Positions 23,401-50,300 of a DNA stretch of 64,000 nt are shown in pieces. Position 1 is the first letter of the stretch. Each line of letters starts with the position of its first letter. The DNA is taken from positions 5,066-69,065 of the forward strand of contig FR878232.1 of NCBI GenBank assembly GCA_000434335.1, given 5' to 3'. Under the pieces are notes generated by a model, which was not told where the DNA came from, searched no databases, and saw only the letters and a program-made list of their open reading frames with translations. The stretch is from Clostridium sp. CAG:492 (lineage in GTDB: Bacteria; Bacillota; Clostridia; TANB77; CAG-508). The translations under genes were made by a program, and so were the position numbers.

Positions 23401-25521
23401 AAGAAGAATGAGGATTCATCGGATAACGAAAAATCTAATGAAAATAGTAGTGCAACAGAGCAATCTTTTGATAATTACTTATTTATTGGAGACTCAAGAT
23501 ATGAGGGAATATCTAGTGAATTATCAGCATTAGGAAGTAATGTAACAGTATGTGCTGCGACATCTTCTGCTCCAAGTGAATGGATAGATATTGCTAAAAA
23601 TGGATCTGGAACTGTTAAGGGAAAAAGCCAAACATTACCAAGTACTGTAAAAAATGTTTCAATAATGCTTGGTGTAAACAATTTATCTGAAACAGCAGAA
23701 ATGGAATATTTAATGAATGCGTTACACGAAAAATATAGTAGTGCTACAATATATGCAAATAGTGTATTTCACGTTGGATCAGCATATTCTGGAGCAGCTT
23801 CAAATGAAGCAATAGATAAATACAATGACGAAATAAGAAATTTCTGCAATCAAAATAGCTCTTGGGCAAAATATATTGATGTTACAAATGGATTAAATGA
23901 TGAATCTGGATACTTAAAATCTGAATATGCTACATCTGATGGATTACATATTGGATCAACAGAGGGAAAAACAACATTAGTAAACAATATTGAAACAGCA
24001 ATAACTGGTGCATCTTCAACAGGAAGCACAACTACGAGCGATGTTGCTGCATCTTCATTACCAGGATATACAATTGTTGTTGCAAATAGAACTAGTACAA
24101 TAACAAATGTTGTTGAAAGTTACCAATATACAGGAACAAGTTATACAGATATTGGACATAGCAGTTATATTGATAATGGAAAAAGATGGTCAAATCCAAG
24201 TAGTGGTCCAAAAAGTAATAGAACAACAGCAGTATATTCACCAACAGCTGTTGCATACCAAGAGGCTTTGAAAAATTATACATTATACTTTAATTTTTTG
24301 TGGGCAGTTTTAGTTGATACAGAAAATATAAATCTTGTAGGAGAATGGGCAGATTTAGTTTGCGATAATGTTGGAAAAAATTCAAAAGTAGTTGTAACAG
24401 TATACTCAGATGTAGAAACTACAACAACTCAAACAGAGAATTCGAGAGTACAAAGTTTTATATCAAATGAAAATGGAATTGTTATTGATGACACATATAA
24501 TGTAACAGAAATAATATATTCAACTATATCAAAAATGAAATCAAAATTAGCTGTTACATATGCAGATACATGGTTGATGAAATATGAAAATAATGCAGAA
24601 ACGTATGATGAATATACATCAAAATCGAAAGAAAGTATAACTGAAAAAGTGGACATTGATGATGAAAATGAAACTAAATCTACAGATACTAATGATGATA
24701 AAGAAAAAAATGCAATTGAAATTTTAAAAGAAAATGATGTATCACTTAGAACAATGAAAAAAGAGAAAAAAATAATAAAAGAAATGTTAAGCTCTAGTGA
24801 AAAAGTAAGTTTTATGGTTGATATATTGGACTATATTTTGGATAAAGCAAGTGGAAATGATACAGAAGAAAATGCATTATCGAAATTATTAGATGTAAGT
24901 TCATTTAATTTGAATACATTTACTCCAACAAGTGGAACTTCGTCAAATGGAGAAGCACTTGCAGGTGGTTCAATAGAAAGTGTAAATGGAGGAGGATATC
25001 GAACTAAATTTACAACTGGAGGTAGAACATTTGTTGAATATAAACAAGGTTGGGGGAATACTGCACCTTGGGGGAATGTATATGTAAATGGCTGGAGTAG
25101 TGGAAGCAATATGGGAAATTCTGGATGTGCATTAACATCAATTGCAGTTATCGCAACTGGATATGGCGTTAATATTTCACCTCAAGATGTTGCTGATCTT
25201 GTAAATAGTGGCGAATATAATTGGGGAGATCTTTTAGGTATAACTAAACATTACATTGGAAAATCTTGTGAGTGGCAAACAACTGGAGATATTCAACATG
25301 CAATAATAAATCAATTAAAAGCTGGTAAGCCTTGTATGGTGCATACTACTGTTAATTATCCAGATGGACATTTTCTTACAGTTTTGGCATACAACGAGGA
25401 GACACAAGAAGTTTATGTTTCTAATGTTGGTGGATGGTATGATGATGATCCAACAAGAAATGGTTGGCAACCAGTAGAAAAATTGAGTGAATATGATGAA
25501 TGTATGTTAATTGGTGATTAG
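20458..25521 (+). CDS. multidomain cell-wall hydrolase (GH3 NagZ-like, lysozyme-like muramidase, SGNH esterase, C39/CHAP-like Cys peptidase) with an N-terminal TM
   Basis: KHYPGYPD and GVIMTDDIGS / AGNDMIL (GH3). AAILGNLYKESGLNP...GYGLAQWT (phage-tail-lysozyme-like). FIGDSRYEG ... GVNN ... DGLHIG (SGNH). GNSGCALTSIAV ... DGHFLTVLAYN ... VYVSNVGG (papain-like). The ATG at 20458 follows the RBS AGGAAAGGAGG. Confidence 0.6.
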   Translation: MNDNNEEDDDDVVVNDEAVDTTDGEADNNDEGLQSQSDVQDDMQNIANSINLKKRKNKDKASGKRLLAAGKALYHTGDVLVKVGEDTQRVGNEIKNLGEKLKEKGKKEVKDATEDFKTGLKLCKTGVGALVGVPLCLRSILKMIKGGATILGGSILKVIGSLINFMGKALAAVGKAMRAIGQKMMEIANKKIAEAGGNISNLSMPGGKNDKDDVEVNSIPGVGGLSETKLSKTKKIIIMIAIGAAIVIAFVWILMQDWESTKENGSEVTGDLKNVPYTVSSKIMDNLVIATDESGAYTYGFKNDDGEIVDIDQAIDSAIKSLEENKSKSLYYLGKNTDNRKALLKKMILAEIATQYPDLSDSVDLGLSGTSTSGTSSSVNSSNDTNSNSSSSSTNVDEIIKNMTIEEKIYQMIMMQAIVSDGSNYADTSVGGVIVATNSNYDANLANIGSKYKITPFVATDDEGGNVERAATGYKTAREYGDSEDYDELYNSEVKKCKELLSKGINLNLGPVSDVISSGALYDRSYGSDSAKVEKCIETILKARASVNVSGNSVGSTLKHYPGYPDNNTNTDTGIAKDNRSIDKINDNINVFKQGVNNGANAIMVSNVIYTNLDANNPASLSPTIISGLRSSFSGVIMTDDIGSAAGVSSISDRYKKAILAGNDMILVWDSNLNDAYSQIKAAVDSGEITEERINESVTRILNWKLNGGTLSGNNSSSSNKNSVKATAGTGDAKTSEKFNSSSKINGGIKVQRKLESGSVINLKYTSTENFNALMASNSDDIINYYTLQKKASSSSSKSIEGDFSGSNNAEIIWNFLTSKGLSETCTAAILGNLYKESGLNPGVEENTPALDKGYGLAQWTFERRTQIETYAQAMNKPVSDIELQLQFLWLEIDSDADHTYANLQWGGRDGWQDTNGLYQRFINMTDIDEATAFFCWNHERPNEEYAHLEGEDGRKAWAKKFYDLYAGKKSSSSSSTTSSSKKNEDSSDNEKSNENSSATEQSFDNYLFIGDSRYEGISSELSALGSNVTVCAATSSAPSEWIDIAKNGSGTVKGKSQTLPSTVKNVSIMLGVNNLSETAEMEYLMNALHEKYSSATIYANSVFHVGSAYSGAASNEAIDKYNDEIRNFCNQNSSWAKYIDVTNGLNDESGYLKSEYATSDGLHIGSTEGKTTLVNNIETAITGASSTGSTTTSDVAASSLPGYTIVVANRTSTITNVVESYQYTGTSYTDIGHSSYIDNGKRWSNPSSGPKSNRTTAVYSPTAVAYQEALKNYTLYFNFLWAVLVDTENINLVGEWADLVCDNVGKNSKVVVTVYSDVETTTTQTENSRVQSFISNENGIVIDDTYNVTEIIYSTISKMKSKLAVTYADTWLMKYENNAETYDEYTSKSKESITEKVDIDDENETKSTDTNDDKEKNAIEILKENDVSLRTMKKEKKIIKEMLSSSEKVSFMVDILDYILDKASGNDTEENALSKLLDVSSFNLNTFTPTSGTSSNGEALAGGSIESVNGGGYRTKFTTGGRTFVEYKQGWGNTAPWGNVYVNGWSSGSNMGNSGCALTSIAVIATGYGVNISPQDVADLVNSGEYNWGDLLGITKHYIGKSCEWQTTGDIQHAIINQLKAGKPCMVHTTVNYPDGHFLTVLAYNEETQEVYVSNVGGWYDDDPTRNGWQPVEKLSEYDECMLIGD

Positions 25522-32804: not shown

Positions 32805-32892
32805 GCAGATGTGGCGGAACTGGCAGACGCACAGGACTTAAAATCCTGCGGTTGAATAAACCGTGCCGGTTCGATTCCGGCCATCTGCACCA
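32805..32892 (+). tRNA. tRNA-Leu (anticodon TAA), long variable arm, encoded CCA
   Basis: Cloverleaf: GCAGATG acceptor; anticodon loop CUUAAAA; TPsiC arm GGTTCGATTCC; ends GCACCA. Confidence 0.85.
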
Positions 32893-32893
32893 A
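32882..32893 (+). repeat. attL: 12-bp direct repeat CATCTGCACCAA at the tRNA-Leu 3' end
   Basis: Identical 12-mer at 41278-41289, downstream of the integrase. Confidence 0.6.
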
Positions 32894-33126
32894 GAATACA
32901 GATTAGAAATCAAATTTCTAACCTGTATTTTTTTGCGTGATTTCAAGAAAAAAGCTACATTTTATAGGTGCTTTGGAACTGTTCCAAAAAGTTCTAAAAA
33001 ATGCCCTATAATGTATATAAAATGTCGGGATTGCATGTCGGGAAAATTTTTAATCTTTGATAATTCTATCAAATACTCCCTTTATTTATTATTAGTCCTA
33101 TTCTGAGTATCAGAAAGGATATAGAA

Positions 33127-33501
33127 ATGGAATTTATACCATACAAAGCTCATGAATGTTTTGAACATTTATATTATCAAATACCAATGGAGTTATTCCT
33201 TAACAAAAATTATAAAGATAATTTAAATTCAGATAGCAAAATTCTTTATGGCTTTTTACTAAATAGACTAACATTATCAGCAAAAAATAATTGGGCTGAT
33301 GAAGAAGGAAATGTTTTTCTAATATTTACTAGAAAAGAAGTACAAGAATTACTGGGTTTATCTGATAAAACAGTTACAAAAGCTTTTAAGCAATTAAAGG
33401 ATTGTAAATTAACATATGAGAAAAAGCAAGGCGCAAATAAACCTAATTTGATTTATGTTGGAAAGATAGAACATGATAAAAATCTTATACAACATTCGTA
33501 A
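33127..33501 (+). CDS. RepA_N-family replication initiator (N-terminal wHTH domain), possibly truncated or frameshifted
   Basis: LYGFLLNRLTLSAKNNWADEEGNVFLIFTRKEVQELLGLSDKTVTKAFKQLKD is the RepA_N signature. Only 124 aa; the overlapping ORF 33473-33694 may be its displaced C-terminus. Confidence 0.5.
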   Translation: MEFIPYKAHECFEHLYYQIPMELFLNKNYKDNLNSDSKILYGFLLNRLTLSAKNNWADEEGNVFLIFTRKEVQELLGLSDKTVTKAFKQLKDCKLTYEKKQGANKPNLIYVGKIEHDKNLIQHS

Positions 33502-33699
33502 AAATTACGAGTCCAAAATCGTAAAATCTACGGCTCACGACACGGAAAATTTACGACCAAATTATAACAATAATAATTATAACAATAAAGTAAAAGGTAA
33601 AAATAGTTATTCAAATTATGAGCAAAGACATTATGATGATTTAAACTTCTTATATGCAAATAATAATTTTGAAAATAATGATGAAACGGAGTGATTTTA

Positions 33700-34062
33700 A
33701 TGAATTTAGAATATATAAAATATGGAGATTATAATTTACCTAATATATCAGTTCCTGAAGAAAGTAATGAAACAAAAGGAAAACATTTTGGTAAATATGG
33801 ATTATTAAGATTAACATTTTTGAAAGAGAATAGACAAGTTTTATACCAAGAATTATTACTTAATAATAAATTACACGAGCATTTAGTAAAAACAGATGAA
33901 GAAACAAATATAAAAGTAAATAACTTAATAAAAGAACTTGCAGAGCAAGAAAATGTTGACGAGAATTTAAAAGCAACTAACCAATTAGAATGGGTTCAAA
34001 AAATGAACAACATTAAAAATCGTGCAGAAGAAATAGTATTTAATGAGCTAATTTATGTATAA
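33700..34062 (+). CDS. TnpV-like transposon-encoded protein
   Basis: GKYGLLRLTFLKENRQVLYQELLLNNKLHEHL...LEWVQKMNNIKNRAEEIV resembles the Tn4451 TnpV family. ATG at 33700 follows the RBS ACGGAG. Confidence 0.5.
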   Translation: MNLEYIKYGDYNLPNISVPEESNETKGKHFGKYGLLRLTFLKENRQVLYQELLLNNKLHEHLVKTDEETNIKVNNLIKELAEQENVDENLKATNQLEWVQKMNNIKNRAEEIVFNELIYV

Positions 34063-34204
34063 ATATCTCTGACGATATTTTGAAAGCAAGCGTCGCATTT
34101 ATACTCCCGTACAAATACAGCTTGTCAGTTTTGAAACAAAAATGATTAATGGGGAAATTCTTCCCCAAACCCCTTTATTTTTTTAAGAAAGGAGTGCAAA
34201 TTTT

Positions 34205-34528
34205 ATGAGAAAAAGAAATATAAAAAAACAAATATGGATAAATTTTCAAGAAGATAATTTACTAAAAAAGAAATCAAAAGAAAGTGGATTAAGTGAATCT
34301 GAATTTATAAGAAGTTTAGTAAGAGGTTATAGAATAAAAGCACAACCTACTGAAGAAATAAAATCTTTTCAAAGAGAGTTATATGGAATAGCGAATAATA
34401 TAAATCAAATTGCAAGAATTGCAAATTCAAGATTAAGTGTTTCACACGATGATTATTCATATATTTCAAAAGAGCTTTCTGATTTTATTTTGAGATTTGA
34501 AAAAGAACTTTATTCAAGACAAAAATAA
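34205..34528 (+). CDS. MobC-family relaxosome accessory protein (RHH)
   Basis: SESEFIRSLVRG (RHH) and YGIANNINQIARIAN (MobC motif). Immediately upstream of the relaxase. Confidence 0.6.
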   Translation: MRKRNIKKQIWINFQEDNLLKKKSKESGLSESEFIRSLVRGYRIKAQPTEEIKSFQRELYGIANNINQIARIANSRLSVSHDDYSYISKELSDFILRFEKELYSRQK

Positions 34529-34542
34529 GGAGGCTTGCTGCT

Positions 34543-35841
34543 ATGGCTATTATAAAATATAAAGTTATACAAAAGAATTTAGAAGCTGTAATAAACTATG
34601 CCAAAAATGGAGATAAAATAGAAAAAGGGATACTTGTATGTGGCATAAATTGTTTGCCAGATACAGCATATTTCCAAATGATGCTCACAAAAAAGACATT
34701 TCATAAAGAAGATGGAAGGCTAGGTTATCATATAATTCAATCATTTAATGGAAAAGAGGTATCTCCTGAAAAATGTAATAGCATAGGTGTTGAATTTGCC
34801 AAAAGTCTATTTGGAGATAAATATCAGGTTTTAGTATGTACTCATATAGATAAAGAAAATGTCCATAATCATATCGTGCTAAATTCAGTTTCTTTTGTAG
34901 ATGGGCTTAAATACCACAATTCTAATGCAGAACTTGCTTTTTTAAGAGAAACAAGTGATGATTTATGTAGAAAGTATGGTTTATATGTTATTGAAAGTGA
35001 AAAAGCTGATAAAGAAAATGCTATTGCTAGAAATAGAACAAATAATTATAATCGCAATAGTGGCAAAATGGAGCTAATAAAAAACGATATTGATGAGGCA
35101 ATAAAGAATGCTAAAAAATATAAAGACTTTATTGATAACTTGGCTTATAAAGGCTATTATGTTAAAAAAAACAATAATGTAATATCTGTATCAACTCCAT
35201 ATTTTAATAGAAATATAAGACTTTCAAGAGCCTTTGGAGAAGATTATACCTTTGAAAATATTAAAAATAGAATTTATTATAGAGATTATCAATTTAAAGA
35301 AGATAAAGTATATAAAATTAGAATATATGAAGGTGTTAAAATTAATTCTGAATTATTAAAAATATCACCATTTTATAGATTATATGTGCATTTCTTATAT
35401 ATTTTAGGAAAATTACCACCTAAAATACGTTATGAAGAAAGAACACCAGAATATTACAGAGAAATAAATAAATTTAATAAGCTATGTGATGAGCTAAATA
35501 TGATTAGTGATTATAGCTTAACATCAATTACAGATATTCAAAATTTAAGGATTAAATATCTTGAAGAAATTTCACCTTTAAAAGCTCAAAGAGAAAAATA
35601 TAGAAAATTATATAATATAACCCAAAATGATGCCGATAAAACGATTCTCAAAGCAAAAATTAATCATTTAACTGAAGATATTGATAGATTGAATTCTAAA
35701 ATACAAACTTGCAGAAGAATTATTACTAAATTTGAAAAAGGAGAAAAAGAAGATTGGCTAATTCAGAAAAGATTTGAAAATAATAAGGAAATAAGTGAAA
35801 AAGAGATTTTGAAAAATAAAGATAATAGAAGAATAAGATAG
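34543..35841 (+). CDS. relaxase/mobilization nuclease (MobA/VirD2-type His-triad relaxase)
   Basis: HIDKENVHNHIVLN (HxDxxHxHxH motif III) with an N-terminal catalytic Tyr region. 432 aa. Confidence 0.65.
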   Translation: MAIIKYKVIQKNLEAVINYAKNGDKIEKGILVCGINCLPDTAYFQMMLTKKTFHKEDGRLGYHIIQSFNGKEVSPEKCNSIGVEFAKSLFGDKYQVLVCTHIDKENVHNHIVLNSVSFVDGLKYHNSNAELAFLRETSDDLCRKYGLYVIESEKADKENAIARNRTNNYNRNSGKMELIKNDIDEAIKNAKKYKDFIDNLAYKGYYVKKNNNVISVSTPYFNRNIRLSRAFGEDYTFENIKNRIYYRDYQFKEDKVYKIRIYEGVKINSELLKISPFYRLYVHFLYILGKLPPKIRYEERTPEYYREINKFNKLCDELNMISDYSLTSITDIQNLRIKYLEEISPLKAQREKYRKLYNITQNDADKTILKAKINHLTEDIDRLNSKIQTCRRIITKFEKGEKEDWLIQKRFENNKEISEKEILKNKDNRRIR

Positions 35842-35961
35842 CGATTAAATTTGCAATATTATGTAAAATATGGTATAATAAAAATTAGATACCGAATGGT
35901 ATTATAAAAAATAAATGGGCTATTTCAAGCCAAGTCCTATATGGGCGGAAAGGTTTTTATT

Positions 35962-36378
35962 ATGAAGATTAACAACAACTCTGCACTCTACACCAACTGT
36001 GTCTTCCTGGGTGGCACTTGTGCCAATTCTACCTGGAGAACCGATCTCATCAGCAAACTCAAGGACTCTGTTCCTTACTTCGACCCTCAGGTTCCTGACT
36101 GGACTCCTGAAGATGCCGAGCGTGAGGATGCATGCAAGCCCGTTGCTGGTATCAATGTTTTCGTCATCACTGGCGATGCACTCGGTACCTACTCTGGTTT
36201 CGAAATCTGTGAGGAAGCTCACCGTGCTCCTGAAAAGTTGGTTTTCGCCACTGTTGGTGAATTGCCTGAAAATCAGGTCAAGGGCATTGGAAAGATTAAG
36301 AAAGCTCTGATTGCAAAGGGATGCCGTGTTTGTGAGACTCTTGACGAGATCGCTGAAATTATCAACCAGGCATATTAA
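35962..36378 (+). CDS. high-GC (~50%) foreign gene; nucleoside 2-deoxyribosyltransferase-like (Rossmann/SLOG-like) protein, function unknown
   Basis: GC3-rich codons (CTG, GGC, ACC) in a 27% GC background. VFLGGTCA...GDALGTYSGFEICEEA resembles the NDT-like fold. ATG at 35962 follows GGAAAGG. Confidence 0.4.
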   Translation: MKINNNSALYTNCVFLGGTCANSTWRTDLISKLKDSVPYFDPQVPDWTPEDAEREDACKPVAGINVFVITGDALGTYSGFEICEEAHRAPEKLVFATVGELPENQVKGIGKIKKALIAKGCRVCETLDEIAEIINQAY

Positions 36379-36431
36379 TCCCAGTAAAAACAAGGTATTT
36401 GGTAGCTAGAACTCTTACAGCCTTATACCTC

Positions 36432-36470
36432 CACCGAATATTCAAGTATTCGGTGGTTTCTTTTTATTTT
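36432..36470 (+). terminator. bidirectional rho-independent terminator between convergent genes
   Basis: ACCGAATATTCAAGTATTCGGT hairpin followed by a T-run. Confidence 0.55.
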
Positions 36471-36784
36471 AGATTATTTTGATCAATCCAATGCAAAAAT
36501 TCCATATTTCCACCTTTAATTTCATAATACGAAATTTCAGCTATTTCATAATCATGTATTTTCTTGATTTCATTTTCTATTTCAGTAAATAAGCTTTCTT
36601 TTGTTCTAAATTCTAATTTATATTCATCGCATTCTTCTAATTCATTATTCCACCAATATTTGGAATGAACTTTAGAAAGTTGACATCCAGCTACTAATCT
36701 TTTTTCTAGTAATGTATCTACAATTTTATTTGCTATTTCTTCCTTATCACAAAATGTTGTTACAATTATATATTCATTTAGCAT
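36464..36784 (-). CDS. cutA: CutA1 divalent-cation tolerance protein family (PII-like fold)
   Basis: IIVTTF...LVAGC...SKYWW...HDYEIAEI...GGNMEFLHWIDQ matches conserved CutA positions. Confidence 0.55.
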   Translation of the reverse strand: MLNEYIIVTTFCDKEEIANKIVDTLLEKRLVAGCQLSKVHSKYWWNNELEECDEYKLEFRTKESLFTEIENEIKKIHDYEIAEISYYEIKGGNMEFLHWIDQNNLK

Positions 36785-36934
36785 TGATTTTCACTCCTTA
36801 AATTTAATATTAATGTTTTAGCATTCTTATAAGTTGTAGAATTTTCTCCATATCTACTTTTGATATCTTCAAGTCTTTTGATATAACCAACATCATGATT
36901 AAATCCTAATACAAATAAATCTTTTAATTCCATT

Positions 36935-37168
36935 TTAAACCTCTTTATTTAAAAATCTTTTTTCTGCTTCAATTACCTTAGCATTATTTTTTATTAATGG
37001 TTCTTCTATACCATCCTCATTTATGCAATTAATGTATTTAAAATCTCCACCAATTCTTGTATACTGATTTCCACCATCTATTGAACAAGCACCACACTTG
37101 CAACTTACACAATCGTGTAAATTTTTTGATTCAATTATATCATTACATTTTAAACATCTAATTTTCAT
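36935..37168 (-). CDS. small Cys-rich (zinc-ribbon-like) protein
   Basis: CLKCN...CVSCKCGAC...CIN Cys clusters. Overlaps the upstream nuclease gene stop. Confidence 0.35.
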   Translation of the reverse strand: MKIRCLKCNDIIESKNLHDCVSCKCGACSIDGGNQYTRIGGDFKYINCINEDGIEEPLIKNNAKVIEAEKRFLNKEV

Positions 37169-38195
37169 TATCTAATCCTTCTAACCTTTTCTTTATTTCT
37201 TCAGGAGATGGTAATAAATCTTTCATTTGCTCTGGTAAAGAATCATGAATCTTATATGTTGCAACTCCAATAGGTTTGTCACTATTACTCAAAGCATATT
37301 CTACAACAGTCCTATTTTTTTCTTTACAAATTATAATACCAATTGATGGATTTTCACTTTCCATTTTAACCTGTTTATCTAATACTGTTAAATAAAATTG
37401 TAATTGACCAACATATTCTGGTTTGAATTCGCCTATTTTTAATTCTATTGCAACTAAACTCTTTAAACTTCTATGATATAGAAGTAAATCAATATAAAAA
37501 TCATTTCCATCAACATTTAGATGATATTGATTACCCATAAATGCAAAATTTCCACCCATTTCTCCAAGAAAATCCTTTATATTGTCAACTAAAGCTCTTT
37601 CTAATTCTCTTTCAGAATGTTGTTCAGATAGTTCCATTATATCAAATATATACTCATCTTTTACTGCAAGTTTAGCTTGATTTACATACTTCTCAGGCAA
37701 AGTTTCATCGAAATTTGTCTGATTGATTAAATACTTTTCATAAGATTTATTTTCAATATGGTTAATTAGTACATCTTTCGACCAACCATATTTTTTTGTC
37801 ATCTTTATATAAAATTCTCTTTCCAGATTATCTTTGCATTTTTCTGTTATAACAATATTTTTAGTCCAACTAATTTCTCGCACGAGTGGTGCGAGATTTT
37901 CTATATCTTTATATGTAATATAAAAATTTCTCATTCTCCATAAATTGCTTGCAGAAAATCCTTTTACTTCTGGGAATTCTTTTTGAATTTCTTTTGCTAA
38001 AACTTCAACAATTGATTTTCCCCAGCCCTTTTCTTGCTGTTGGTTATATATTTCTTCTCCAATTCCCCAATACAAGTTAATTAGCGTTGTATTTACAGCT
38101 TTCATAGCTTCATATTGACTTTCTCTTATTTTATTTTTAATTTCAACAATAAAATTATTGTATTCTGCATTTATTAGATTGTTTTCCATTTTCAA
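37158..38195 (-). CDS. YhcG/DUF1016-family PD-(D/E)XK nuclease
   Basis: N-terminal ...TLINLYWGIGEEI...GWGKSIVEVLAKEIQKEFPEVKGFSASNLWRMRNFY is the YhcG signature. C-terminal D...ELK PD-(D/E)XK core (IDLLLYHRSLKSLVAIELKIGEF). Confidence 0.65.
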   Translation of the reverse strand: MKMENNLINAEYNNFIVEIKNKIRESQYEAMKAVNTTLINLYWGIGEEIYNQQQEKGWGKSIVEVLAKEIQKEFPEVKGFSASNLWRMRNFYITYKDIENLAPLVREISWTKNIVITEKCKDNLEREFYIKMTKKYGWSKDVLINHIENKSYEKYLINQTNFDETLPEKYVNQAKLAVKDEYIFDIMELSEQHSERELERALVDNIKDFLGEMGGNFAFMGNQYHLNVDGNDFYIDLLLYHRSLKSLVAIELKIGEFKPEYVGQLQFYLTVLDKQVKMESENPSIGIIICKEKNRTVVEYALSNSDKPIGVATYKIHDSLPEQMKDLLPSPEEIKKRLEGLDNEN

Positions 38196-38213
38196 CCTCC
38201 CAATAACATAAAA

Positions 38214-39161
38214 CTATTCAATATAATTATTTTTCTTTTGTCTGCTTTTGTTTATATTTTCTCTATTTCTACATTGTATAGTGTCATATTCAGACTTAAT
38301 ATTTTCTGCAATAAATGGTTTACCACAATGTTTGCATAGTTTTACTTCTGTTCTTCCAGAAGTTTCATTTAGAAGTAAGATAGTTTCTATTATTTCACTT
38401 AAAGACATAAAATTCCATTTGAATTTTATTTGCCCATCTTCAGCACTATATGAAATATTAGGCTTTTTTAAGCTATCTCCAGTGATACTTTCTTGATATA
38501 CTTGTCTTATATCTTCTGATACATCATCATAAAGGTAAGCACAAATTAAAAGCTTTTTATTGTATATAATTGTTGCAAAGTTAATAATTTCTGCAATAGT
38601 TTCAGCATAATTTTTTGAAAAAATTACATCATTAAGTCTATCTCCTTCAATTTGTTCAAAATCATCATTAAGACCAGTATTTCTGTGATAATCGTTTGCT
38701 TTCATTGTATTCGACCAGTCAATTTTTGAATCTTTCCAAAAATATTTCTTTTCAAATTCCAATGCACTTATAGAAGTATTATATCCTAAATTTACAGGGA
38801 TATCTCCATTATCCATAAATTCATAATTTTCTGGCAAATATCTAAAATTACCAAGTAATCCATAATTGCTTACAAATTCAAACACCAAATTTTGGAATTT
38901 TTCCATTTTACTTTGTGCTTCAATTGTTACTTCCTTATTGCCAAGTTTAAACATTTCATTACCAACTGATTCTTTTCCTATTACTAATAAATCTTTTAAT
39001 ATTTGATTTTTTACTTCAAATGGATCATAGGTACTTGGCTTTGCATTTTTATCTGGGAATATGTAATATTTATCGTCTTTTTTTTCAATGATATACTTAC
39101 TGTACTTACACCATTTTGCAGTAAATTTAATCTTTTCTTCTTTAATCATTTCACACCTCAT
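38214..39161 (-). CDS. hypothetical protein with a C-terminal zinc ribbon (CKHCG...CRNRE), operonic with the YhcG nuclease
   Basis: 315 aa. Likely start at the internal MIKEEK (39149), which has an AGGTG RBS. No recognised domain. Confidence 0.4.
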   Translation of the reverse strand: MRCEMIKEEKIKFTAKWCKYSKYIIEKKDDKYYIFPDKNAKPSTYDPFEVKNQILKDLLVIGKESVGNEMFKLGNKEVTIEAQSKMEKFQNLVFEFVSNYGLLGNFRYLPENYEFMDNGDIPVNLGYNTSISALEFEKKYFWKDSKIDWSNTMKANDYHRNTGLNDDFEQIEGDRLNDVIFSKNYAETIAEIINFATIIYNKKLLICAYLYDDVSEDIRQVYQESITGDSLKKPNISYSAEDGQIKFKWNFMSLSEIIETILLLNETSGRTEVKLCKHCGKPFIAENIKSEYDTIQCRNRENINKSRQKKNNYIE

Positions 39162-39359
39162 AAAAAATCTTATAAAATTTTATAAAACTAGTTGACTTTT
39201 ATAATAATATGTTATAGATTTGTAATAGCTAAGCTACTATACTATTTCGATAAGAAATAGTAAATATCTTACAACTATGTCTATATTATATAATTTTTAA
39301 AAAATATTGTCAATAGATGGTCACTTTACAAAAAACTTAAATTGAAGGGAGGATTGCTT

Positions 39360-39563
39360 ATGAATAAGGTACAAGTAAAAGAAAAGCCAATGCCAGTTAT
39401 TTATACTACTGCAGATATTTGCAAAATGTTTCATATTGGTAGAGTAAAATGTTTAGAGCTATTTCACAGAGCTGATTTTCCAGCACAGAAATATGGCAGA
39501 GGTTTTGGAATTGAAGCAAATGCTTTAGCAAATTATATGAGCTCTAGACACATTATTTCTTAA
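39360..39563 (+). CDS. excisionase-family HTH DNA-binding protein (Xis-like)
   Basis: YTTADICKMFHIGRVKCLELFHRADFPAQKYGRGFGIEANALANYM matches the excisionase/MerR-like HTH pattern. RBS GAAGGGAGG. Confidence 0.45.
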   Translation: MNKVQVKEKPMPVIYTTADICKMFHIGRVKCLELFHRADFPAQKYGRGFGIEANALANYMSSRHIIS

Positions 39564-39715
39564 AAAGAAAAAGAGATTTAGAAATGGCACTTCTAAACCT
39601 CTTACAAATCACATGGGAATGTCTTCCTATGTAAATTCTCTGAAATTATTATAGCACAAGTAAGTAATTACTTGCAAGACATTCCCTTTAAATTTTATTA
39701 TGAAGGGAGTAAAAA

Positions 39716-40027
39716 ATGAGCAAGAAAAAAGAATTTGTCGAAGGTATTGACTATGTTATTACTATAAGAAAAAGAAAGAAATTTATAAAAAATTCAAAGA
39801 AAAATATTTGTCCTATATGTGAAAATTGCAATCATAAAAATTTGTGTTTGAATAGAAGAAACAAAGAAACTATGGAAAGGTGTAACAAGTGCAAAAATTG
39901 TAGTGATTGTGAAAATTGCGATAAATTTCACTTTTATGATGAATATGAAGGAAGGTTGTTAAAACTTGGAACAAATGCAAATACAGGCAAAGCAATTAGA
40001 CAATCATTTTCTGGTAAGTCTGAATAA
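39716..40027 (+). CDS. Cys-rich hypothetical protein, in frame with the downstream integrase across a TAA stop
   Basis: CPICENCNHKNLC...CNKCKNCSDCENC. The C-terminal ...GKAIRQSFSGKSE resembles an integrase arm-binding segment. Confidence 0.35.
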   Translation: MSKKKEFVEGIDYVITIRKRKKFIKNSKKNICPICENCNHKNLCLNRRNKETMERCNKCKNCSDCENCDKFHFYDEYEGRLLKLGTNANTGKAIRQSFSGKSE

Positions 40028-40192
40028 ATCATTTTAGAAAAATTAAGAACACAGTTTATAAAAAATAAAGAAGAAGGAATAAAAGAAACAATTTATACAC
40101 CAAATGAAGTTTCAATAATTGAACTTGCTAATGAAATTGAAGAAAATAAATTCAGACTTTCTAAAACACATGGTTCAGGATACAATAGAAAT

Positions 40193-41167
40193 ATGCAGAC
40201 AATAAAAGCGTGTAGTGCATATAATTTTATGTTTAAGCCTATTCAGAATGTAACAAGAACAGACATAGAAAGATTTTTACAGGCAGAAAAGCACAAATCT
40301 AATTCTTCTATTTCAAAAGAGTATGCTATTATCAAAAATGCATTTGCACTTGCTTATAAAAAACATTTAATTGATAGAGATATTGCATTAGATTTTAATA
40401 TTGATCCAGTAGAAAAACCTAAAAGTGAAAAACAAGATAAAGATGTTGTTGCTTTTACAATAAGAGAAGAATATACACTAATTCAGTATATAAATACACA
40501 TTATTCAAAATACAATAATATGCTTTTGTTAGCACTTTATACGGGAATGAGAATTGGAGAAGTTCTAGCATTAACAATTAACGATTTTGATTTTGATGAA
40601 GGTTATGGAACAATTAGTGTAAATAAAACTTTAACTAAAAATAAAAGTGGAAAAATAATAATTGGAAATGTTACTAAAACCAAAAATGGAAAAAGAAATT
40701 TGCATTTAGATAAAGTTTCAAAAGAAGTTGCACTAAAAGCAATTGCGGAAATGACTCAAAATAAAAGAAACCTAATATTCCTTCGCAGAGATGGAAAGCT
40801 ATATTATGATAGTCAAATAAATAGTGCATTTAAAAGAATTTGTAAAAATGCTGGGATAAAAGTAATTATGACTAAACATAGAAAAGTGTCTAAATCAAAA
40901 GGAGTTCACTATGTAAATGAACAGACCAGTGAGGCACATACACATATGTTAAGACACACATTTGCAACTAGATGTATTGAAGCAGGAATGGATTTAGCAA
41001 CACTGCAAAAAGTTTTAGGGCATGCTAATATTCAAACAACTATAAATATTTATGGAGATATATTTGATTATCATCAGAAAAATCAAATGTATAAATATAC
41101 AGAATATATGGACAAAATGAATGAAAAATATGAAAAACTATTTGAAAATAGTACGATACAAGAATAG
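40193..41167 (+). CDS. tyrosine site-specific recombinase/integrase
   Basis: Catalytic-domain motifs [11 protein letters not shown] (box I R), HMLRHTFAT (box II) and [15 protein letters not shown] (Tyr). The reading frame is open from 40028 with no ATG before 40193. Confidence 0.75.
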
Positions 41168-41199
41168 AACAATAATAAATAATTTGATAGAAAATATAT

Positions 41200-41216
41200 T
41201 CCCGACAATGTCGGGA
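41200..41216 (+). promoter_or_regulatory. 17-bp palindrome TCCCGACA-A-TGTCGGGA near attR; the same half-site is present twice near attL (33023-33043)
   Basis: Perfect 8-bp inverted repeat. Direct copies of TGTCGGGA at 33023-33030 and 33036-33043. Confidence 0.4.
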
Positions 41217-41277
41217 CAAAGATACGAAATTTGAAATCAACTGGTATTAAAGGAAAAGATGGCAAAAATAATTTGCT

Positions 41278-41289
41278 CATCTGCACCAA
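41278..41289 (+). repeat. attR: 12-bp direct repeat CATCTGCACCAA
   Basis: Identical to the tRNA-Leu 3' end at 32882-32893. Confidence 0.6.
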
Positions 41290-41351
41290 AGTAATACCAA
41301 GGATTTGAGTGATTCTCGAGGTATTATTTTTTTTGCCAAAAATTCAAAAGT

Positions 41352-44168: not shown

Positions 44169-46976
44169 ATGAGCAAGAAATTTACAAAAATATCTATAGT
44201 GTTTTTTATAATATTGCTATCAATATTATTTAACAAAACTTCAAATGCAGAAACTTTTCAGCCTATGGGCATAGGTACTAACGATAGAAACACAACAAAC
44301 GCATTTTATAGGACAGTAGGTTCAGACAAGCAAATGTGGCAATACACAAAAGATAATCGAAGTACTGTTACCGAAAATGTATATTGTGCTAGTGAAGGAA
44401 AAAGCTTTGTAGGACCTCATAAATATGAAGGTTATGACCTTTATTATGAAAAAGGGAAAAGTGATTATTCTGTAATTTCTGCAAATTATAATAAAATATT
44501 GTGGATATTAGATAACGCATATGTGGACAAAAATGTAGATTCAGCTACTCAATCTGCAATGATTGAAAACTTAAAAAAAGTTACAAATGGAAGCGTTGAT
44601 TCACAAATTGACTACATAAACTCACATGCATACAAAAATGAATTATTTTATGAAATTACACAATGCCTATTATGGAGTTATACTAAGAATGCTAGCAATT
44701 TAGGTGGTATCACCAATATTAAATATGGAGCTACAAATTATACACAAGCAATGGACGTTTATAATGCTTTAAAAAAGGTTGCGGATACTAAAGGTAATTA
44801 TGAATCTTTAAATGTAAATGCAAATGAAGTTAAAACATATATAAATTCATTATCTTTTGATAATACTGCCGCAAAAATTGAAGGAAATGTTGTTGGTCCA
44901 TTTACATTAAATAACTATAATGAAAAATATAATTTTCCATCTGAATGGTTTGTTACAGTAAATGGGAGAGTAAATAAGGATTATAGTGTTAGAAGAGAAG
45001 AAAATAAATTTTATATAGAATTTAATTCTAATTTACCATCTACTTGTAATGTAAATGTTGATTTAGTTATGCAATATATTATTACAACTGGTAAATTTTG
45101 GTTTCAAGATGATGAAGGTCAAGAGCTAATTACTGTAAATAAAGAGCGTGTTATAAATGATATTTCAGCCAATGTTGCACAAAGTAGTAAATACTTTTTA
45201 GATGCAGTAAAACTTGAATATGGAAGTAGTAATAGGGTTCCAGGGGCAACAATTTCGATAAAATCTGAAAATGAAAGTGTTGTATATAAAACTGGTAAAA
45301 CTGGAGAAAATTGGGGAAGTTTAAAAACAGAAGATTTTACAACTTCAAAAACTTTTATTATTACAGAAGATGAAGCTCCAGATGGTTATATTAATTCTTT
45401 AAGTGGTATTAAAATTAAACTAACAGTGCAAAAAAATGGTACATCGTTTAATTCATATATTAAAATTTATAAAGATGGCAAAGATGTTACTTCTAAATAT
45501 AATAGGTTTGTAATATTATCAACTTTAAAATCTGATGACGATTCGGTTAGAATTGGTTTATATATTAGAGATATAAAAAACGTAAATTATAATTTATGTG
45601 TTATAAAAAGAAGTGCAAAAACTCAAAAAGGTTTAGCTAATGCTAAATTTGATGTTTATGAAAGTGATATGAAAACTGTAAAAGGTAGTTTAGTAACAGC
45701 TACAAATGGTTATTCTAATTTTATTTCTTATGACGTTAATGATTTGAATTCTGGTTTAAGTAAAATTTATGTAAAAGAGGTTGAGGCTCCTGCTGGTTAT
45801 GAACTTAATAACGAAAATGAGCCTATTGAAATACAACCTTATGTTGATGAATATGGTAATATAACTATTAACGAAATTAACACAGATACACTTAAAACAT
45901 ATGTGCAAGATATTGGTGGTGTTCAAACTATTACTGTAGAAAAATTTGATTCTTTAAAAAATGGTAATTATAATATTAAAATTGTTAAAATTGATTCTAA
46001 AGGAAATACTGTTTCTTCTAATGAAACAAAATTTATGGTAAATGATACCGAACTAGCAACAACAAATGGTGTTTTAGATGTTGTTACTGGTAAAAAAATA
46101 ACAGAGGATAACCAAACAGATACATATAATATAACTGAAAGTGCAGCACCTGATGGATATGGCAAATATAGTGGTAATATTAGTTTAAATGTTATTGGAA
46201 AAGAAGATGAAAATGGATATCAATTAAATAAAGATGCTACATATTTAGAGGTTAATGGCGAAAAAGTTGAGCAAGGTAAATTTTCTAGTGATGGATTTGT
46301 TTATTGGGATATTAATGATAATACTATATGTTTAAAACTTAAAAATAGTTGTTTTGATTTAGCTCTTCGTAAATGGGTAACTGAAGCGATTGTAACCGAA
46401 AATGGTAAAACAGTTACAACTAAAACTGGACATAGTGCAGATGATGATCCAGAGTCTGTTGTTAAAGTTGATTTAAAAAAGAGCAAGTTAAATGATGTTG
46501 TTGTAAAATTCAAATATTCAATTAGAGTAACAAATGAAGGTGAAATTGCAGGTGAGGCAACAGAAATTAGAGATGATATACCTGCTGGATTAAAATTTGT
46601 TGCAGAAGATAACCCTGACTGGAAAGAAGAAAATGGCCAAATTGTTACAAATAAATTGGCTAATACAACATTACAACCTAACGAAAGTGCAGAAGTTGAA
46701 ATTATATTAACGTGGATTAATAGCGAAAAGAATATGGGCGTAATGGTTAATACTGCTGAAATAAATAAAGACCATAATGATTATGGAGCTAAGGATATTG
46801 ATTCAACACCTGGTAATAAGGTTCCAGGAGAAGACGATATAGATGATGCACCAGTAATGATTACAGTTAAAACTGGTACATATATTATAAGCGTAGTTTC
46901 ATTAATATGTGGTGTAGTGTTAATATTATCAATAGGAATTGTTTTTATAAAAAAGAAAGTTATTAGTATCTATTAA
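44169..46976 (+). CDS. surface protein with an N-terminal thioester-domain-like adhesin region, Ig-like repeats, a C-terminal DLALRK (DUF11-like) domain and a TM anchor
   Basis: Signal peptide. VYCASEG (Cys) and EITQCLLW (TQxxxW) fit the TED Cys/Gln motifs. C-terminal FDLALRKWVT...VTNEGEIAG...DIPAGLKFV, then TM plus a basic tail (no LPXTG). Confidence 0.55.
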   Translation: MSKKFTKISIVFFIILLSILFNKTSNAETFQPMGIGTNDRNTTNAFYRTVGSDKQMWQYTKDNRSTVTENVYCASEGKSFVGPHKYEGYDLYYEKGKSDYSVISANYNKILWILDNAYVDKNVDSATQSAMIENLKKVTNGSVDSQIDYINSHAYKNELFYEITQCLLWSYTKNASNLGGITNIKYGATNYTQAMDVYNALKKVADTKGNYESLNVNANEVKTYINSLSFDNTAAKIEGNVVGPFTLNNYNEKYNFPSEWFVTVNGRVNKDYSVRREENKFYIEFNSNLPSTCNVNVDLVMQYIITTGKFWFQDDEGQELITVNKERVINDISANVAQSSKYFLDAVKLEYGSSNRVPGATISIKSENESVVYKTGKTGENWGSLKTEDFTTSKTFIITEDEAPDGYINSLSGIKIKLTVQKNGTSFNSYIKIYKDGKDVTSKYNRFVILSTLKSDDDSVRIGLYIRDIKNVNYNLCVIKRSAKTQKGLANAKFDVYESDMKTVKGSLVTATNGYSNFISYDVNDLNSGLSKIYVKEVEAPAGYELNNENEPIEIQPYVDEYGNITINEINTDTLKTYVQDIGGVQTITVEKFDSLKNGNYNIKIVKIDSKGNTVSSNETKFMVNDTELATTNGVLDVVTGKKITEDNQTDTYNITESAAPDGYGKYSGNISLNVIGKEDENGYQLNKDATYLEVNGEKVEQGKFSSDGFVYWDINDNTICLKLKNSCFDLALRKWVTEAIVTENGKTVTTKTGHSADDDPESVVKVDLKKSKLNDVVVKFKYSIRVTNEGEIAGEATEIRDDIPAGLKFVAEDNPDWKEENGQIVTNKLANTTLQPNESAEVEIILTWINSEKNMGVMVNTAEINKDHNDYGAKDIDSTPGNKVPGEDDIDDAPVMITVKTGTYIISVVSLICGVVLILSIGIVFIKKKVISIY

Positions 46977-46980
46977 TATT

Positions 46981-47029
46981 AAAGCTTGATGTATTAAATA
47001 ATGTGTTTAATACATCAAGCTTTTTTTGT
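46981..47029 (+). terminator. strong rho-independent terminator (17-bp stem)
   Basis: AAAGCTTGATGTATTAAA...TTTAATACATCAAGCTTT followed by T7. Confidence 0.7.
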
Positions 47030-47166
47030 TGCTTTTTTTATATAATTTTGTATTTAATTAAAATTTTTTGGTAAATACACAAATTGGTTGATTAGTATTT
47101 GGGCTACGGAATTAAGGAAAAAAGAATTTTAGTCGAATAATTTAGTTTTTGTTACGAAAAAAGTAT

Positions 47167-47190
47167 GAAAATGTAATAAAAATGTAATAA
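47167..47190 (+). promoter_or_regulatory. 22-bp tandem repeat AAAATGTAATAAAAATGTAATAA upstream of giant adhesin gene 2
   Basis: Two 11-bp direct repeats one helical turn apart. Followed by TTGACT-N16-TAAAAT promoter-like hexamers at ~47236-47263. Confidence 0.5.
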
Positions 47191-47311
47191 ATACATAAAC
47201 AAATAAAATCCGTAGAATAAGTGTAGTTTTTTTAATAAATTTGTAATTTGACTTATATTTATAAATCATTAAAATGATGTTAAGATAAAAAACTTTTGAA
47301 GGGAGATTATC

Positions 47312-50300
47312 ATGAACGTTAAGAAAAGATGGTTTATTATTCCAATAGTTATTGTGTTTGCCATAACAATATTTTTATTGGCACATAATAATAATAAATT
47401 TAGCAGTTTTATGAGCTCTTTAGTTAAACAAGATGAAAATAAAAGTTGGACTAGAGATGAGGATAAAACTTATGTTAAAAATGATACAATTAATAAATAT
47501 GGAGAAAGCGTACAAAAAATTAATTTGTATACCATAAATGGTGGAATTGATTCTAGCGTTTTTGGATGGTGTATGAATAAAGGTGCAGCTTTATATGGAT
47601 ATGGAAATACTGGAGGATGGGGCTATGTTGATACGATAGATAAAAACTGGTCATCAGATAAAGGTAGTGTTAACTGGTTAATGGATAACATTATAAGATA
47701 TGGTAAAAGTGTTGAGAATACCGAAAAGGATTTTTATAAAAATAAATTGAATAGTTATGGAATTTCAGTAAATGGATTAGATGATGATCAAATATTTACG
47801 TTAGAGCAATATGCTTTATGGAAGTATACCAATAATCATTCTGTAAATAATGATAGATTAGATGGAAAGCTTGTAAGTAAAGCTAATGCTAATAGTAAAT
47901 ATTCATTAAATAAAACTAAGTTTGATATTGATAATTCTTCTGTAAAAATTAATTATAGTAATAATGTTGCAGTAGTTGGTCCATTTAATGTAAAAAATAA
48001 TGGATTTATGCATATTACAGCTAAAGCTAATAATGTTAATTTAGAAATGTTTAGTGATGCAAATTGTCAAAATAAAATATCTGAATATACTAATTATGCT
48101 GGAAATATTTATGTAAAATTAAACAATCCAAATAATAATACAAATATTGTTTTAAGTGGATATGAATATATAACAAAAGCTAGATATTATACTACAATTG
48201 ATAATACTCCAAATAATGAATCAAATCAACCATTTTTAATGATTGATAGAACTAAATCAGATGGAAGTAAATCTTTTAATTATGTAGTTTCTGGTAGTTA
48301 CCACATTAATGTTAAGAAAAAATCTACAACTAATGCTAACCAAAAAGTTGGTGCTAAATTTAAATTAACTCAAAAACTTTATGGTGCTAATACAGCTAAA
48401 GAATCAACTGTAGAAATAAAAAATACAGAAGAGCAAAAAACTGTAACTTTTAATGGTAAAGATGTTATTGATATTGATAAAGATGGCATAGGAGTTGGAA
48501 AACCAGATACATATACTATTTCGGAAGTTGAAGTGGAAGATGGATATCAAAAATTAGATTTATCTGGTGTAACTTTATATGTTTACAAAAAAATTGATGG
48601 TACTAAGTTACAAGTTGATTATGTAAGAGCAGTTATTAATGGTAAAAACGTAGATATTTATGCTGGAAATAGTGCAGAGCTTACTGTTAAAAATACAAAT
48701 GATTTAAAAATTGAAGTTAGCTCTACAGCATTTGCAATTGAAGTAAAAAATGCTCCTATTTTGGGAAGCTATAATATGAAAATTGCTAAAAGAGATGCTA
48801 ATACAAATTGGAGTGAATCTACAAATAATTCAACTTTAAATTTGGCAGATGCGAAGTTTAAGGTCAGACAATACATAAATATTGATGAACAAACATATAA
48901 TAATGCATTTAGGCAAGGTCAATCTTCAGATGTAGAATCATTTTTAAGTACAATGTCTGCTGTGGGAAATAAAAAAGAAGATAAATATCCTATAAGTCAA
49001 GAAAATAATTGGGTGTCTATATATAATAGTGATATAGAAATTAATAAAAATAGTGCTAATAAAATAGATATTTATGCTATAAATGAGGAGTCTGCTCCTT
49101 CTGGTTATAATAAAAATGCTAATGTTATGTATTTAAAAGTTACCAAAAAGGTAAATAGTAATGGTGATAAATATTGTATTGATAGTGTTAAATTTATTAA
49201 TTCGGCAAATGGTCAAGTAATTGATGAAAGAACTCCTAATGTTGTTACAAAAAATGAAAATGGAGGATTTACATATTACGTAAATAAAAGTGGCAATTAT
49301 AAAGTAGCATTTGATTCTTCTTCAATTTTTGTTACTTATGCGAATAATCAAATTGAAGGAAATTATAATTTACAAATATTAAAAAGATCTAGTGCTAATG
49401 ATTGGGAAAAGGATATAAATGATAAATCTAATACTTTAGCAGCAGATTTTAGTGTAAGACAATATTTAAACCAAGATAATACAGATTTTAATAATAAATT
49501 AAAACAATCTAATAATAATATTGAAACAGCTTTAAATGGTTTAACAAAGAGCGAAAAAAATGTTAAAACTCAAAAAGATGCTTGGACTACAATTTATGAT
49601 AATGTAAAAATAACTAAAAATGATGTAAATTTAATTGATATATATGCTTTAACAGAAACTAATGCTCCTGATGGTTATAATAAAAATAATAATACTATGT
49701 ATTTAAAAGTTTATAAAACTGTTAAAAGTGAAAGCAATGGTACAAATAAGTATTATATAGATAAAGTAAAATTTATGTCTGCAAATGGAAATGAACTTGA
49801 CGAAAATGTAACTGATATACAAAAAACAAATAATGGAAATTATGTTTATTATAAAAATAAATCTTTAAAATATATGTTTGCTTATAATTCAACTTCAATT
49901 ATGGTATTTTTTACAAACCAACCAATTGATGGTAGTTATAAAATGAACATTGTAAAAAGAGATATAAATGATAATTCAAATTCAACAACAAATTTAGGCA
50001 GTGCAGAGTTTGCGGTTAACCAATATTTAAATGGTGTTGAAGATAATGATAAATCTGATGATAAAGCCGATGCAATTGGTTATACAAGTAATAGTAAAAA
50101 TTCTGTTAAATTAGAAAAAGGTGTTACTCAAGATATTTACTATTCAAATTCTAATGTTGTAAAAATAACAGATATTACTAAAGTTGATGCATATACTTTT
50201 GAAGAAAAATCGGCTCCTGCTGGTTATGAAAAATCAAACTTAAAAGTTTTATTACAGGTTTATAAAACTAAAAAAACTAATTCTTCTGGAAATTTTGAGT

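Follow-up and report, generated by a model that had tools for sequence, protein, structure and literature searches.

This report concerns a 64,000-nucleotide stretch of the genome of Clostridium sp. CAG:492, a human-gut metagenome species (GenBank assembly GCA_000434335.1, contig FR878232.1, positions 5,066 to 69,065 of the forward strand). We call this stretch the window, and all positions follow its numbering. It carries an integrative mobilizable element (IME) at the 3' end of a tRNA-Leu(UAA) gene. In our reading, to which we give a probability of roughly 80%, the segment 32894-41289 is a decayed copy of such an element, most likely excision-defective and vertically inherited. The integrase gene is broken by a nonsense mutation (E104*) and the repA gene by a 2-bp deletion, and since both lesions are fixed the copy has most likely lost the ability to excise.

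Insertion site and boundaries of the element

The 12-mer CATCTGCACCAA occurs exactly twice on the + strand of the window, at 32882-32893 and at 41278-41289, and was matched in none of 100 dinucleotide-preserving shuffles (0 expected). Its left copy consists of the final 11 nt of the tRNA, CCA included, plus one base, and leaves the tRNA intact, while the right copy lies 111 bp 3' of the stop codon of the integrase open reading frame (ORF). No third core was found near the element when one mismatch was allowed, and the window holds two cores and one element. A single tRNA was detected in the window by ARAGORN, tRNA-Leu(taa) at 32805-32892, which Rfam recognized as RF00005 at 32805-32889 (59.4 bits), with no other RNA family between 32000 and 42000. 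An earlier note on this DNA, made from the sequence alone, had described the repeat at the tRNA 3' end and past the integrase, and a tRNA gene kept intact by a repeat that rebuilds its end. Both descriptions are borne out here. The note had also reckoned with a 12-mer that recurs by chance or with relatives that carry the genes away from the tRNA; only two copies exist, and the relatives keep the tRNA linkage.

Both boundaries could be fixed independently of the repeat, through an empty site. The protein of the downstream neighbour gene (366 aa) led to a related metagenome contig, L029 (ENA ERZ28635075), where this gene adjoins tRNA-Leu(taa) and the element is absent. There the tRNA core is followed directly by AGTAATACCAAGG..., which is the sequence found in the window after 41289, and 3' of the core the two sequences share 95/100 and 182/190 bases. 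When the left and right flanks of the window were joined in silico they aligned seamlessly to L029, base for base at the junction. The insert is therefore 32894-41289, 8,396 bp with one core copy counted, in agreement with the 8.4 kb proposed earlier, and a genome lacking the insert, which the earlier note had asked for, is now at hand. A look-up with the protein of the upstream neighbour returned a contig that ends inside the tRNA.

As in IMEs generally, we are dealing with a discrete insert, bounded by direct repeats, at a specific target whose gene stays intact. Composition would not have revealed this island, since its GC content (27.3%) equals that of the window (27.5%).

At the same locus, L029 carries a segment of about 1.46 kb with an Abi_2 (abortive-infection-type) gene downstream of the empty tRNA-Leu site (positions 2200-3860 of that contig). 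It is flanked by a direct duplication of about 190 bp of the sequence downstream of the tRNA (108 nt at 97% and 80 nt at 91%), and looks like a second, different insertion or duplication at the locus.

The integrase gene and its nonsense mutation

The ORF of 324 aa (40193-41167), which had earlier been taken for an intact integrase, proved to be the C-terminal fragment of a longer gene. Translation of 39716-41170 in a single frame gives a protein of 483 codons with one in-frame stop, and the 103-aa ORF (39716-40027) and the 324-aa ORF are the two pieces of this one int gene. The stop is the TAA at 40028-40030 (E104*), where a glutamate is found in all ten aligned relatives. In six of six relatives the codon is GAA, and one G-to-T change is thus enough to explain it. 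Reassignment of the stop codon was dismissed as implausible, a matter of judgement. The homologues of this integrase number thousands among 5.8 billion proteins; the best 120 listed measure 480-486 aa with 86-93% identity, and among the matches listed there is no intact integrase of more than 93% identity. The frame contains a Phage_integrase domain (PF00589, 1.3e-29, Pfam), and the catalytic motifs are all present: GMRIGE (277-282), HMLRHTF (410-416), LGHANI (434-439) and NIYGD (444-448).

The effect of the stop can be judged from an AlphaFold2 model of a full-length relative (mean pLDDT 80). In the N-terminal domain this model places a strand at 13-23, a Cys-rich insertion at 32-68, strands at 71-81 and 96-100, and a helix at 103-120, which would correspond to the three-strand-plus-helix layout of arm-binding domains, with the core-binding helices and the catalytic domain after it. 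In a Foldseek search the closest structures were the Tn1549 Int chains (6en2, E = 1.2e-14, about 21% identity). The stop falls at the start of the N-terminal-domain helix, and the next methionine, M160, lies within the second predicted core-binding helix. According to the model, the 324-aa product would have no arm-binding domain and an incomplete core-binding domain, with its catalytic motifs intact. Since the arm motifs are conserved in the family (see below), an integrase deprived of its arm-binding domain should no longer be able to carry out normal excision, by analogy with the biology of lambda-type integrases. A recombinase of its own capable of excision and integration is expected of an IME; most relatives encode one, and in the window copy its frame is broken.

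In GenBank the two fragments are labelled "unknown" (CDA31024.1) and "putative transposon integrase" (CDA31025.1). These labels hide an int pseudogene and a probably immobile island, which calls for caution with such annotations.

The Cys-rich insertion itself (within residues 1-120, window 39716-40075) has eight invariant cysteines, C32, C35, C38 and C44 followed by C56, C59, C62 and C68. They form two copies of CX2CX2CX5C, which are invariant across members only 30-47% identical (relatives compared: P0003 and P0130-P0159). This N-terminal domain had no match in Pfam or PHROGs, the search of PDB sequences gave only insignificant matches of zinc-finger type (E = 0.5-0.9), and only 55 clusters among 1.84 billion representative proteins contain it. 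It is conceivable, if improbable, that the insertion binds Fe-S clusters or a regulatory metal and not structural zinc, and that arm binding is redox- or metal-responsive. Were this true, excision and integration of these IMEs would follow the metal or redox state of their strictly anaerobic host, and a tyrosine recombinase would be controlled in a way that is new.

The RepA_N frameshift and the age of the lesions

The second lesion, which had likewise been overlooked, is a 2-bp deletion in the RepA_N gene between 33493 and 33494, evident when the window is aligned with four relatives (five sequences). The gene reads as 124 aa (33127-33501) plus an out-of-frame ORF of 73 aa (33473-33694). In six relatives it is a single ORF of 182-184 aa, whose conserved C-terminal 60 residues are found in another frame in the window. 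The intact RepA_N protein of the related locus L010 matches a DnaD-like helicase loader in PHROGs (1e-24).

Sequencing error was ruled out as the source of the lesions, which recur in independent assemblies, one of them 99.7% identical. The truncated 324-aa integrase was found in six contigs, and the truncated 124-aa RepA in nine, the five of these for which a place is shown coming from five different samples. One contig from another sample, L033, has both lesions at the same chromosomal site and differs from the window by 24 substitutions over 8.8 kb, without gaps (99.73% identity). Both lesions are also present in L035, and a third close contig, L036, shows 99.5% identity. The lesions are thus fixed in the host lineage; the simplest reading of these sequences is that they arose once and that the element has since been vertically inherited.

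In L036 (ERZ28573236, 1706-2815) the relaxase is called as 369 aa and not 432, which may be a sign of further decay or of a different assembly. In the relatives L015, L020, L021, L023 and L025 the int ORFs are shortened as well. This fits the frequent decay known for IMEs, and errors in the assembly of these metagenome-assembled genomes (MAGs) are possible there.

Gene content of the element

The features recognized in the element and at its borders are as follows.

32805-32892, + strand: tRNA-Leu(UAA), integration target, intact (ARAGORN; Rfam RF00005)
32882-32893, + strand: attL core CATCTGCACCAA (exact repeat; same core at attL of relatives)
32895-32936, + strand: hairpin and T-run, candidate replacement terminator of the tRNA (conserved in 8/8 aligned left ends)
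33022-33043, + strand: two direct copies of ATGTCGGGA at 13-nt spacing, candidate arm-type Int/Xis sites of the left arm
33127-33694, + strand: RepA_N-type replication-initiator gene, frameshifted (PF06970, 1.5e-23)
33691-34062, + strand: TnpV-family protein (PF14198, 3e-37)
34063-34204, + strand: candidate origin of transfer (oriT) region, intergenic, 5' of mobC (fold; identity to L010)
34205-34528, + strand: relaxosome accessory protein, NikA-like/MobC (PF21983, 1.1e-14; PF05713, 3.9e-08)
34543-35841, + strand: relaxase, PF03432 MobA/VirD2-like, MOBP/Q type, apparently intact (PF03432, 1.7e-38)
35941-38195, both strands: variable cargo slot (Pfam), with the five genes that follow
35941-36378, + strand: nucleoside deoxyribosyltransferase-like protein (Pfam)
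36464-36784, - strand: CutA1 (Pfam)
36778-36933, - strand: ORF of 51 aa
36935-37168, - strand: DUF7695 zinc-ribbon protein (Pfam)
37158-38195, - strand: YhcG/DUF1016 PD-(D/E)xK nuclease (Pfam; PADLOC PDC-S02)
38214-39161, - strand: orphan backbone gene, called as 311 aa, divergent from xis-int (conserved in most relatives)
39342-39563, + strand: probable excisionase or directionality factor, 67-73 aa (size and position)
39716-41167, + strand: tyrosine integrase pseudogene, 483-codon frame (TAA at 40028-40030)
41200-41216, no strand assigned: inverted pair TCCCGACA-A-TGTCGGGA, candidate arm-type site of the right arm
41278-41289, + strand: attR core CATCTGCACCAA, element end at 41289 (repeat and L029 comparison)
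41290-41336, + strand: original chromosomal hairpin and T-run downstream of the tRNA, outside the element, marks attB (contiguous with the tRNA in L029)

The RepA_N, TnpV-like, MobC, relaxase and cargo genes announced by the earlier note were all recovered with Pfam, and the relaxase has the His motif HIDKENVHNHIV (residues 101-112) together with INYAK (17-21) and GYHIIQSF (61-68). It is 94% identical over 431 aa to that of L010. Its NCBIfam matches to SAG1250 and to TraI/MobA(P) relaxases were below threshold, and the search of PDB sequences gave no homologue. The YhcG protein matches the PADLOC candidate defence family PDC-S02 (3.9e-148). No domain of a type IV secretion system (T4SS), whether VirB4, VirD4 or other, was found among the ORFs of the element with Pfam and NCBIfam. 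The proposal of an element with mobilisation functions and without a mating pore of its own, as is typical of IMEs, agrees with this.

The gene called Xis-like was placed well, being a small gene directly 5' of int in nearly all relatives with 80-99% identity. The helix-turn-helix (HTH) attributed to it has only sub-threshold similarity, namely a weak match to HTH_17 (E = 0.012) and one to a MamR-type family below cutoff (4.1e-05). From its size and position it is the probable excisionase.

The orphan backbone protein (311-315 aa) is 77-99% identical in most relatives and ends in a C-terminal CxxC...C tail resembling a zinc ribbon. Among the 5.8 billion proteins it has only 241 homologues; those listed, 120 in number, have identities of 85% or more and lack a Pfam domain. 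Nothing significant was obtained for it in Pfam, PHROGs and PADLOC, and its AlphaFold2 model was unusable (pLDDT 38).

Ends, arm motifs and a model of the family

Eight left ends and eighteen right ends were aligned. On the left, conservation begins directly after the core, and on the right it reaches TTTGCT just before it. These limits indicate that the exchanged segment is the core of 11-12 bp. The left end opens with a hairpin at 32895-32929, whose 16-nt arms (32895-32910 and 32914-32929) are 94% complementary around a 3-nt loop and are followed by TTTTTTT. It would likely terminate the tRNA transcript after displacement of the native terminator, now at 41290-41336.

The motif TGTCGGGA has four copies in the 64 kb, all of them in the arms of the element (0.10 expected): direct copies at 33023 and 33036 and the inverted pair at 41200-41216. 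In most relatives the arm motifs stand at fixed offsets from the cores, the right pair 78 and 69 bp before the core. On this pattern they are candidate arm-type sites for the integrase or Xis. A candidate oriT would lie in the 142 bp 5' of mobC (34063-34204), which as single-strand DNA fold at -20 kcal/mol (z = -4.0 against shuffles) and of which the first 118 nt or so are 97-98% identical to L010.

A functional member of the family would work as follows. The tyrosine integrase, which would be heterobivalent, and the small Xis-like protein would recombine the core CATCTGCACCA[A], common to attP and to the 3' end of tRNA-Leu(UAA), with the TGTCGGGA arm sites, two direct on the left and an inverted pair on the right, probably positioning the integrase. 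Insertion would restore the tRNA's 3' end and supply the element's own terminator hairpin. Once the element is excised, oriT, probably 5' of mobC, would be nicked by the relaxase (PF03432) together with the MobC/NikA-like protein, and the strand would leave through a T4SS with its VirD4-type coupling protein, both supplied by a conjugative system present in the cell. The circle would replicate with the support of RepA_N, and cargo would be carried in the one variable slot, here including the YhcG-type nuclease of a candidate defence family. The window copy would become mobile again only with a related integrase in trans.

The attP junction predicted for the circle is ...AATAATTTGCT-CATCTGCACCAA-GAATACAGATTAG... 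and the repaired attB is ...TTCCGGC-CATCTGCACCAA-AGTAATACCAAGG.... The longer synthetic junctions are AAATAATTTGCT|CATCTGCACCAA|GAATACAGATTAGAAATC for attP and GATTCCGGC|CATCTGCACCAA|AGTAATACCAAGGATTTG for attB. Together with the candidate arm sites, this cleanly delimited set of attB, attL and attR can be used for testing the family experimentally.

The family of related elements

When a single genome of each species was scanned, 23 loci came up, every one of them in gut MAGs of uncultured Clostridia and Bacillota, and about 20 related elements share the site and the layout. In the loci with enough flank (L008, L016, L017 and L024), tRNA-Leu(taa) is found 9-10 kb 5' of int, and several relatives show the same core both where the tRNA ends and some 115 bp beyond int. 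The conserved gene order obtained with tblastn is tRNA, RepA_N, TnpV, MobC, relaxase, variable cargo, the orphan 311-aa gene (reverse), Xis-like, Int and the core.

Modules are exchanged within this frame. The integrases are about 85% identical, and the relaxases of most relatives only about 33%; L010 is the only relative with the Mob module of the window (94-96%). In the cargo slot L010 carries radical-SAM, aldo-keto reductase, deaminase-like and Fic genes, while L019 and L025 have the YhcG/DUF7695 pair in common with the window. A family of IMEs targeting tRNA-Leu thus circulates in uncultured low-GC gut Clostridia, swapping Mob modules and cargo that includes candidate defence and nucleotide-metabolism genes. 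The family appears to be undescribed and conceptually standard.

Some loci are more complex. Three cores per locus, that is tandem arrays at tRNA-Leu, were observed in L005, L013 and L017, and in L016 a left end of the same family directly follows attR. An unrelated element family occupies the same tRNA, with a left end that begins (C/T)GACGTATCTGTTCGAAC, and L021 and L026 show hybrid junctions with the changed core CCAATGGCACCAA. Multi-core loci and second left ends make the tRNA-Leu site an accretion hot spot, as described for families of IMEs and of ICEs (integrative and conjugative elements) (PMC5704250).

Alternative readings

Could the copy in the window be fully functional? The int fragments would then cooperate, or translation would restart, RepA would be dispensable, and the neighbouring T4SS would perhaps mobilise the element. 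All the C-terminal catalytic motifs are intact, as are the relaxase, MobC, TnpV, the Xis-like gene and both att cores, and the 324-aa ORF starts at the ATG of M160, a residue that all relatives keep. Moreover, the arm-binding domain of lambda Int, when separated from the rest, can influence C-terminal fragments in trans. We nevertheless regard this as unlikely, given that the stop removes the helix of the modelled arm-binding domain, that a restart at M160 would delete about one and a half predicted core-binding helices, and that full length is kept in the best 120 integrase homologues listed. A second, independent lesion in repA argues in the same direction, as do the occurrence of the lesioned element at the same locus in strains diverged by 0.3-0.5%, which is a pattern of vertical inheritance, and the failure to find the attP junction in three scans. 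Less probable still is a remnant resembling a cis-mobilizable element (CIME), with usable att sites, that would move only when an incoming family element in tandem supplies the integrase and the composite excises. Neither the two att cores nor any of the four arm motifs is damaged, relatives have tandem arrays at this tRNA (L005, L013, L017 and L016), and accretion with cis-mobilisation is documented for ICE and IME families (PMC5704250). The window, for its part, has one element with two cores, and no second integrase was found in it; such a remnant would besides describe a possible fate and not a different identity, and it overlaps with the decayed IME that we favour. That the segment is no mobile element at all, and that we see a repeat arisen by chance, the remnant of a plasmid that had integrated, or a prophage or phage satellite, is very improbable. 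In favour of it stand the RepA_N gene and the match of TnpV to a PHROG family, but the repeat was not reached in 100 shuffles, the precise empty site contradicts such an origin, many relatives keep the same ends, integrase and tRNA target, and neither capsid nor terminase nor primase was matched in Pfam and PHROGs. A known plasmid was rejected as the source when a PLSDB megablast of the whole element matched the tRNA only.

Several points weigh against a decayed IME as set out here. The split integrase, a 103-aa N-terminal fragment with a re-initiated C-terminal one, could keep some activity. All the sequences are metagenome assemblies, and L029 is a diverged relative and not an isogenic strain, 95% identical in the right flank and only about 75% in the left. 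The three scans for the attP junction pattern, two of metagenome contigs (the second relaxed) and one of viral contigs, found nothing, which is weak negative evidence on the circle, and the mobility of the family as a whole is read here from anatomy. Within the mobilisation model, the excisionase is assigned by position and a sub-threshold HTH match, no nick site was identified in the candidate oriT region 34063-34204, and no Pfam-detectable relaxase or recombinase is present among the ORFs of the T4SS region, which may not be functional for conjugation.

Comparison with known systems

The anatomy of the element corresponds to the canonical definition of an IME, with its own relaxase and no T4SS (PMC5704250). 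The closest functional analogue is NBU1 of Bacteroides uniformis, which uses a tyrosine integrase and a short core to insert into a tRNA-Leu gene at its 3' end, encodes a MobP relaxase with an oriT, lacks a T4SS and is mobilised by co-resident conjugative elements (PMC5704250). Integration at the tRNA-Leu 3' end via a short common core is shared by both. NBU1 belongs to another phylum, and the likeness drawn here is one of anatomy: the window element would work like NBU1, which is not to claim membership in its group. Unlike NBU1, the window family adds RepA_N, TnpV and the MobC/NikA accessory gene, and its integrase has the Cys-rich N-terminal insertion and, by its modelled structure, Tn1549 Int as nearest match.

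In its evolutionary pattern the family comes closest to the tRNA-targeting IMEs of Firmicutes. Streptococcal examples such as IME_Sag2603_tRNAlys combine a tyrosine integrase acting on the 3' ends of tRNA genes with exchange of their integration and mobilisation modules, frequent decay and tandem arrays at one att site (PMC5704250), and module swapping, arrays and decay are also found in the window family. The target tRNA, the hosts (here uncultured gut Clostridia) and the gene set are different.

The integrases of Tn916 and Tn1549 have, as judged from the model, the same order of folds, a small N-terminal DNA-binding domain followed by core-binding and catalytic domains. These integrases insert at AT-rich sites with non-identical coupling sequences, whereas the window family uses an identical core of 11-12 bp at one conserved tRNA target and does not share their low specificity. 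The eight-Cys N-terminal insertion is a further difference.

With Tn4451 and Tn4453, from which the name TnpV comes, the element has a TnpV homologue in common, and they too are mobilizable integrated elements of clostridia. In Tn4451, however, recombination is the task of a large serine recombinase, with no excision factor involved (PMC5704250). Membership in this group was rejected, as no serine recombinase domain was found with Pfam and NCBIfam, and a tyrosine integrase is present instead. The CIME class was rejected as well: the att sites are kept, but the Mob genes are intact and int is merely point-mutated. The window copy is at an early stage of decay and is not a CIME. None of this departs conceptually from the established IME paradigm, and only the integrase stands out as unusual, by its Cys-rich N-terminal domain.

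The upstream T4SS and the neighbourhood

The neighbouring conjugative-type gene set announced by the earlier note is indeed present upstream of the tRNA, within 2931-26872. Its recognizable members are the following.

4224-5810: VirD4-type coupling protein
11985-12356: VirB2/TrbC-like pilin
12634-13074: PrgI-like protein
14335-16302: VirB4-like ATPase
20434-25521: GH3/lysozyme/C39 hydrolase of 1,695 aa

The VirD4-type and VirB4-type genes stand 17-29 kb 5' of the element. Housekeeping genes are interleaved with the set (Mur ligase, DnaJ, CDA30988.1; YqeY; M16 peptidases; LGT, CDA31010.1), and from the hydrolase as far as LGT the gene order is shared with the diverged L029, which lacks the element. 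Exact matches of proteins such as DnaJ and LGT name the organism as Clostridium sp. CAG:492. The region could be an ICE in decay or else a T4SS resident in the chromosome. A PF03432 relaxase and a VirD4-type coupling protein are a plausible pairing, and use of this T4SS in trans is a putative property of the element. For the copy in the window, which probably cannot excise, such use is doubtful, and moot if excision is indeed lost.

Two observations concern the T4SS region itself. At 6006-9961 the genes of a 572-aa DNA methylase (N6_N4_Mtase) and of a 747-aa protein of ResIII/DEAD helicase type overlap, and the two look like a Type III restriction-modification pair. At 18001-19000, inside an ORF of 1,006 aa (16385-19405) that had no Pfam match, the local GC content rises to 43% in a window of 27% GC. 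Repeats of biased composition in a surface protein of the T4SS may account for this.

On the other side, just 3' of the tRNA locus, 44169-61637 encodes three very large surface proteins (935, 3,400 and 1,307 aa), the first two with matches to SpaA, TED (faint) or CLIPPER domains. They are adhesin- or pilin-like, of a type often linked to Gram-positive conjugation or colonisation.

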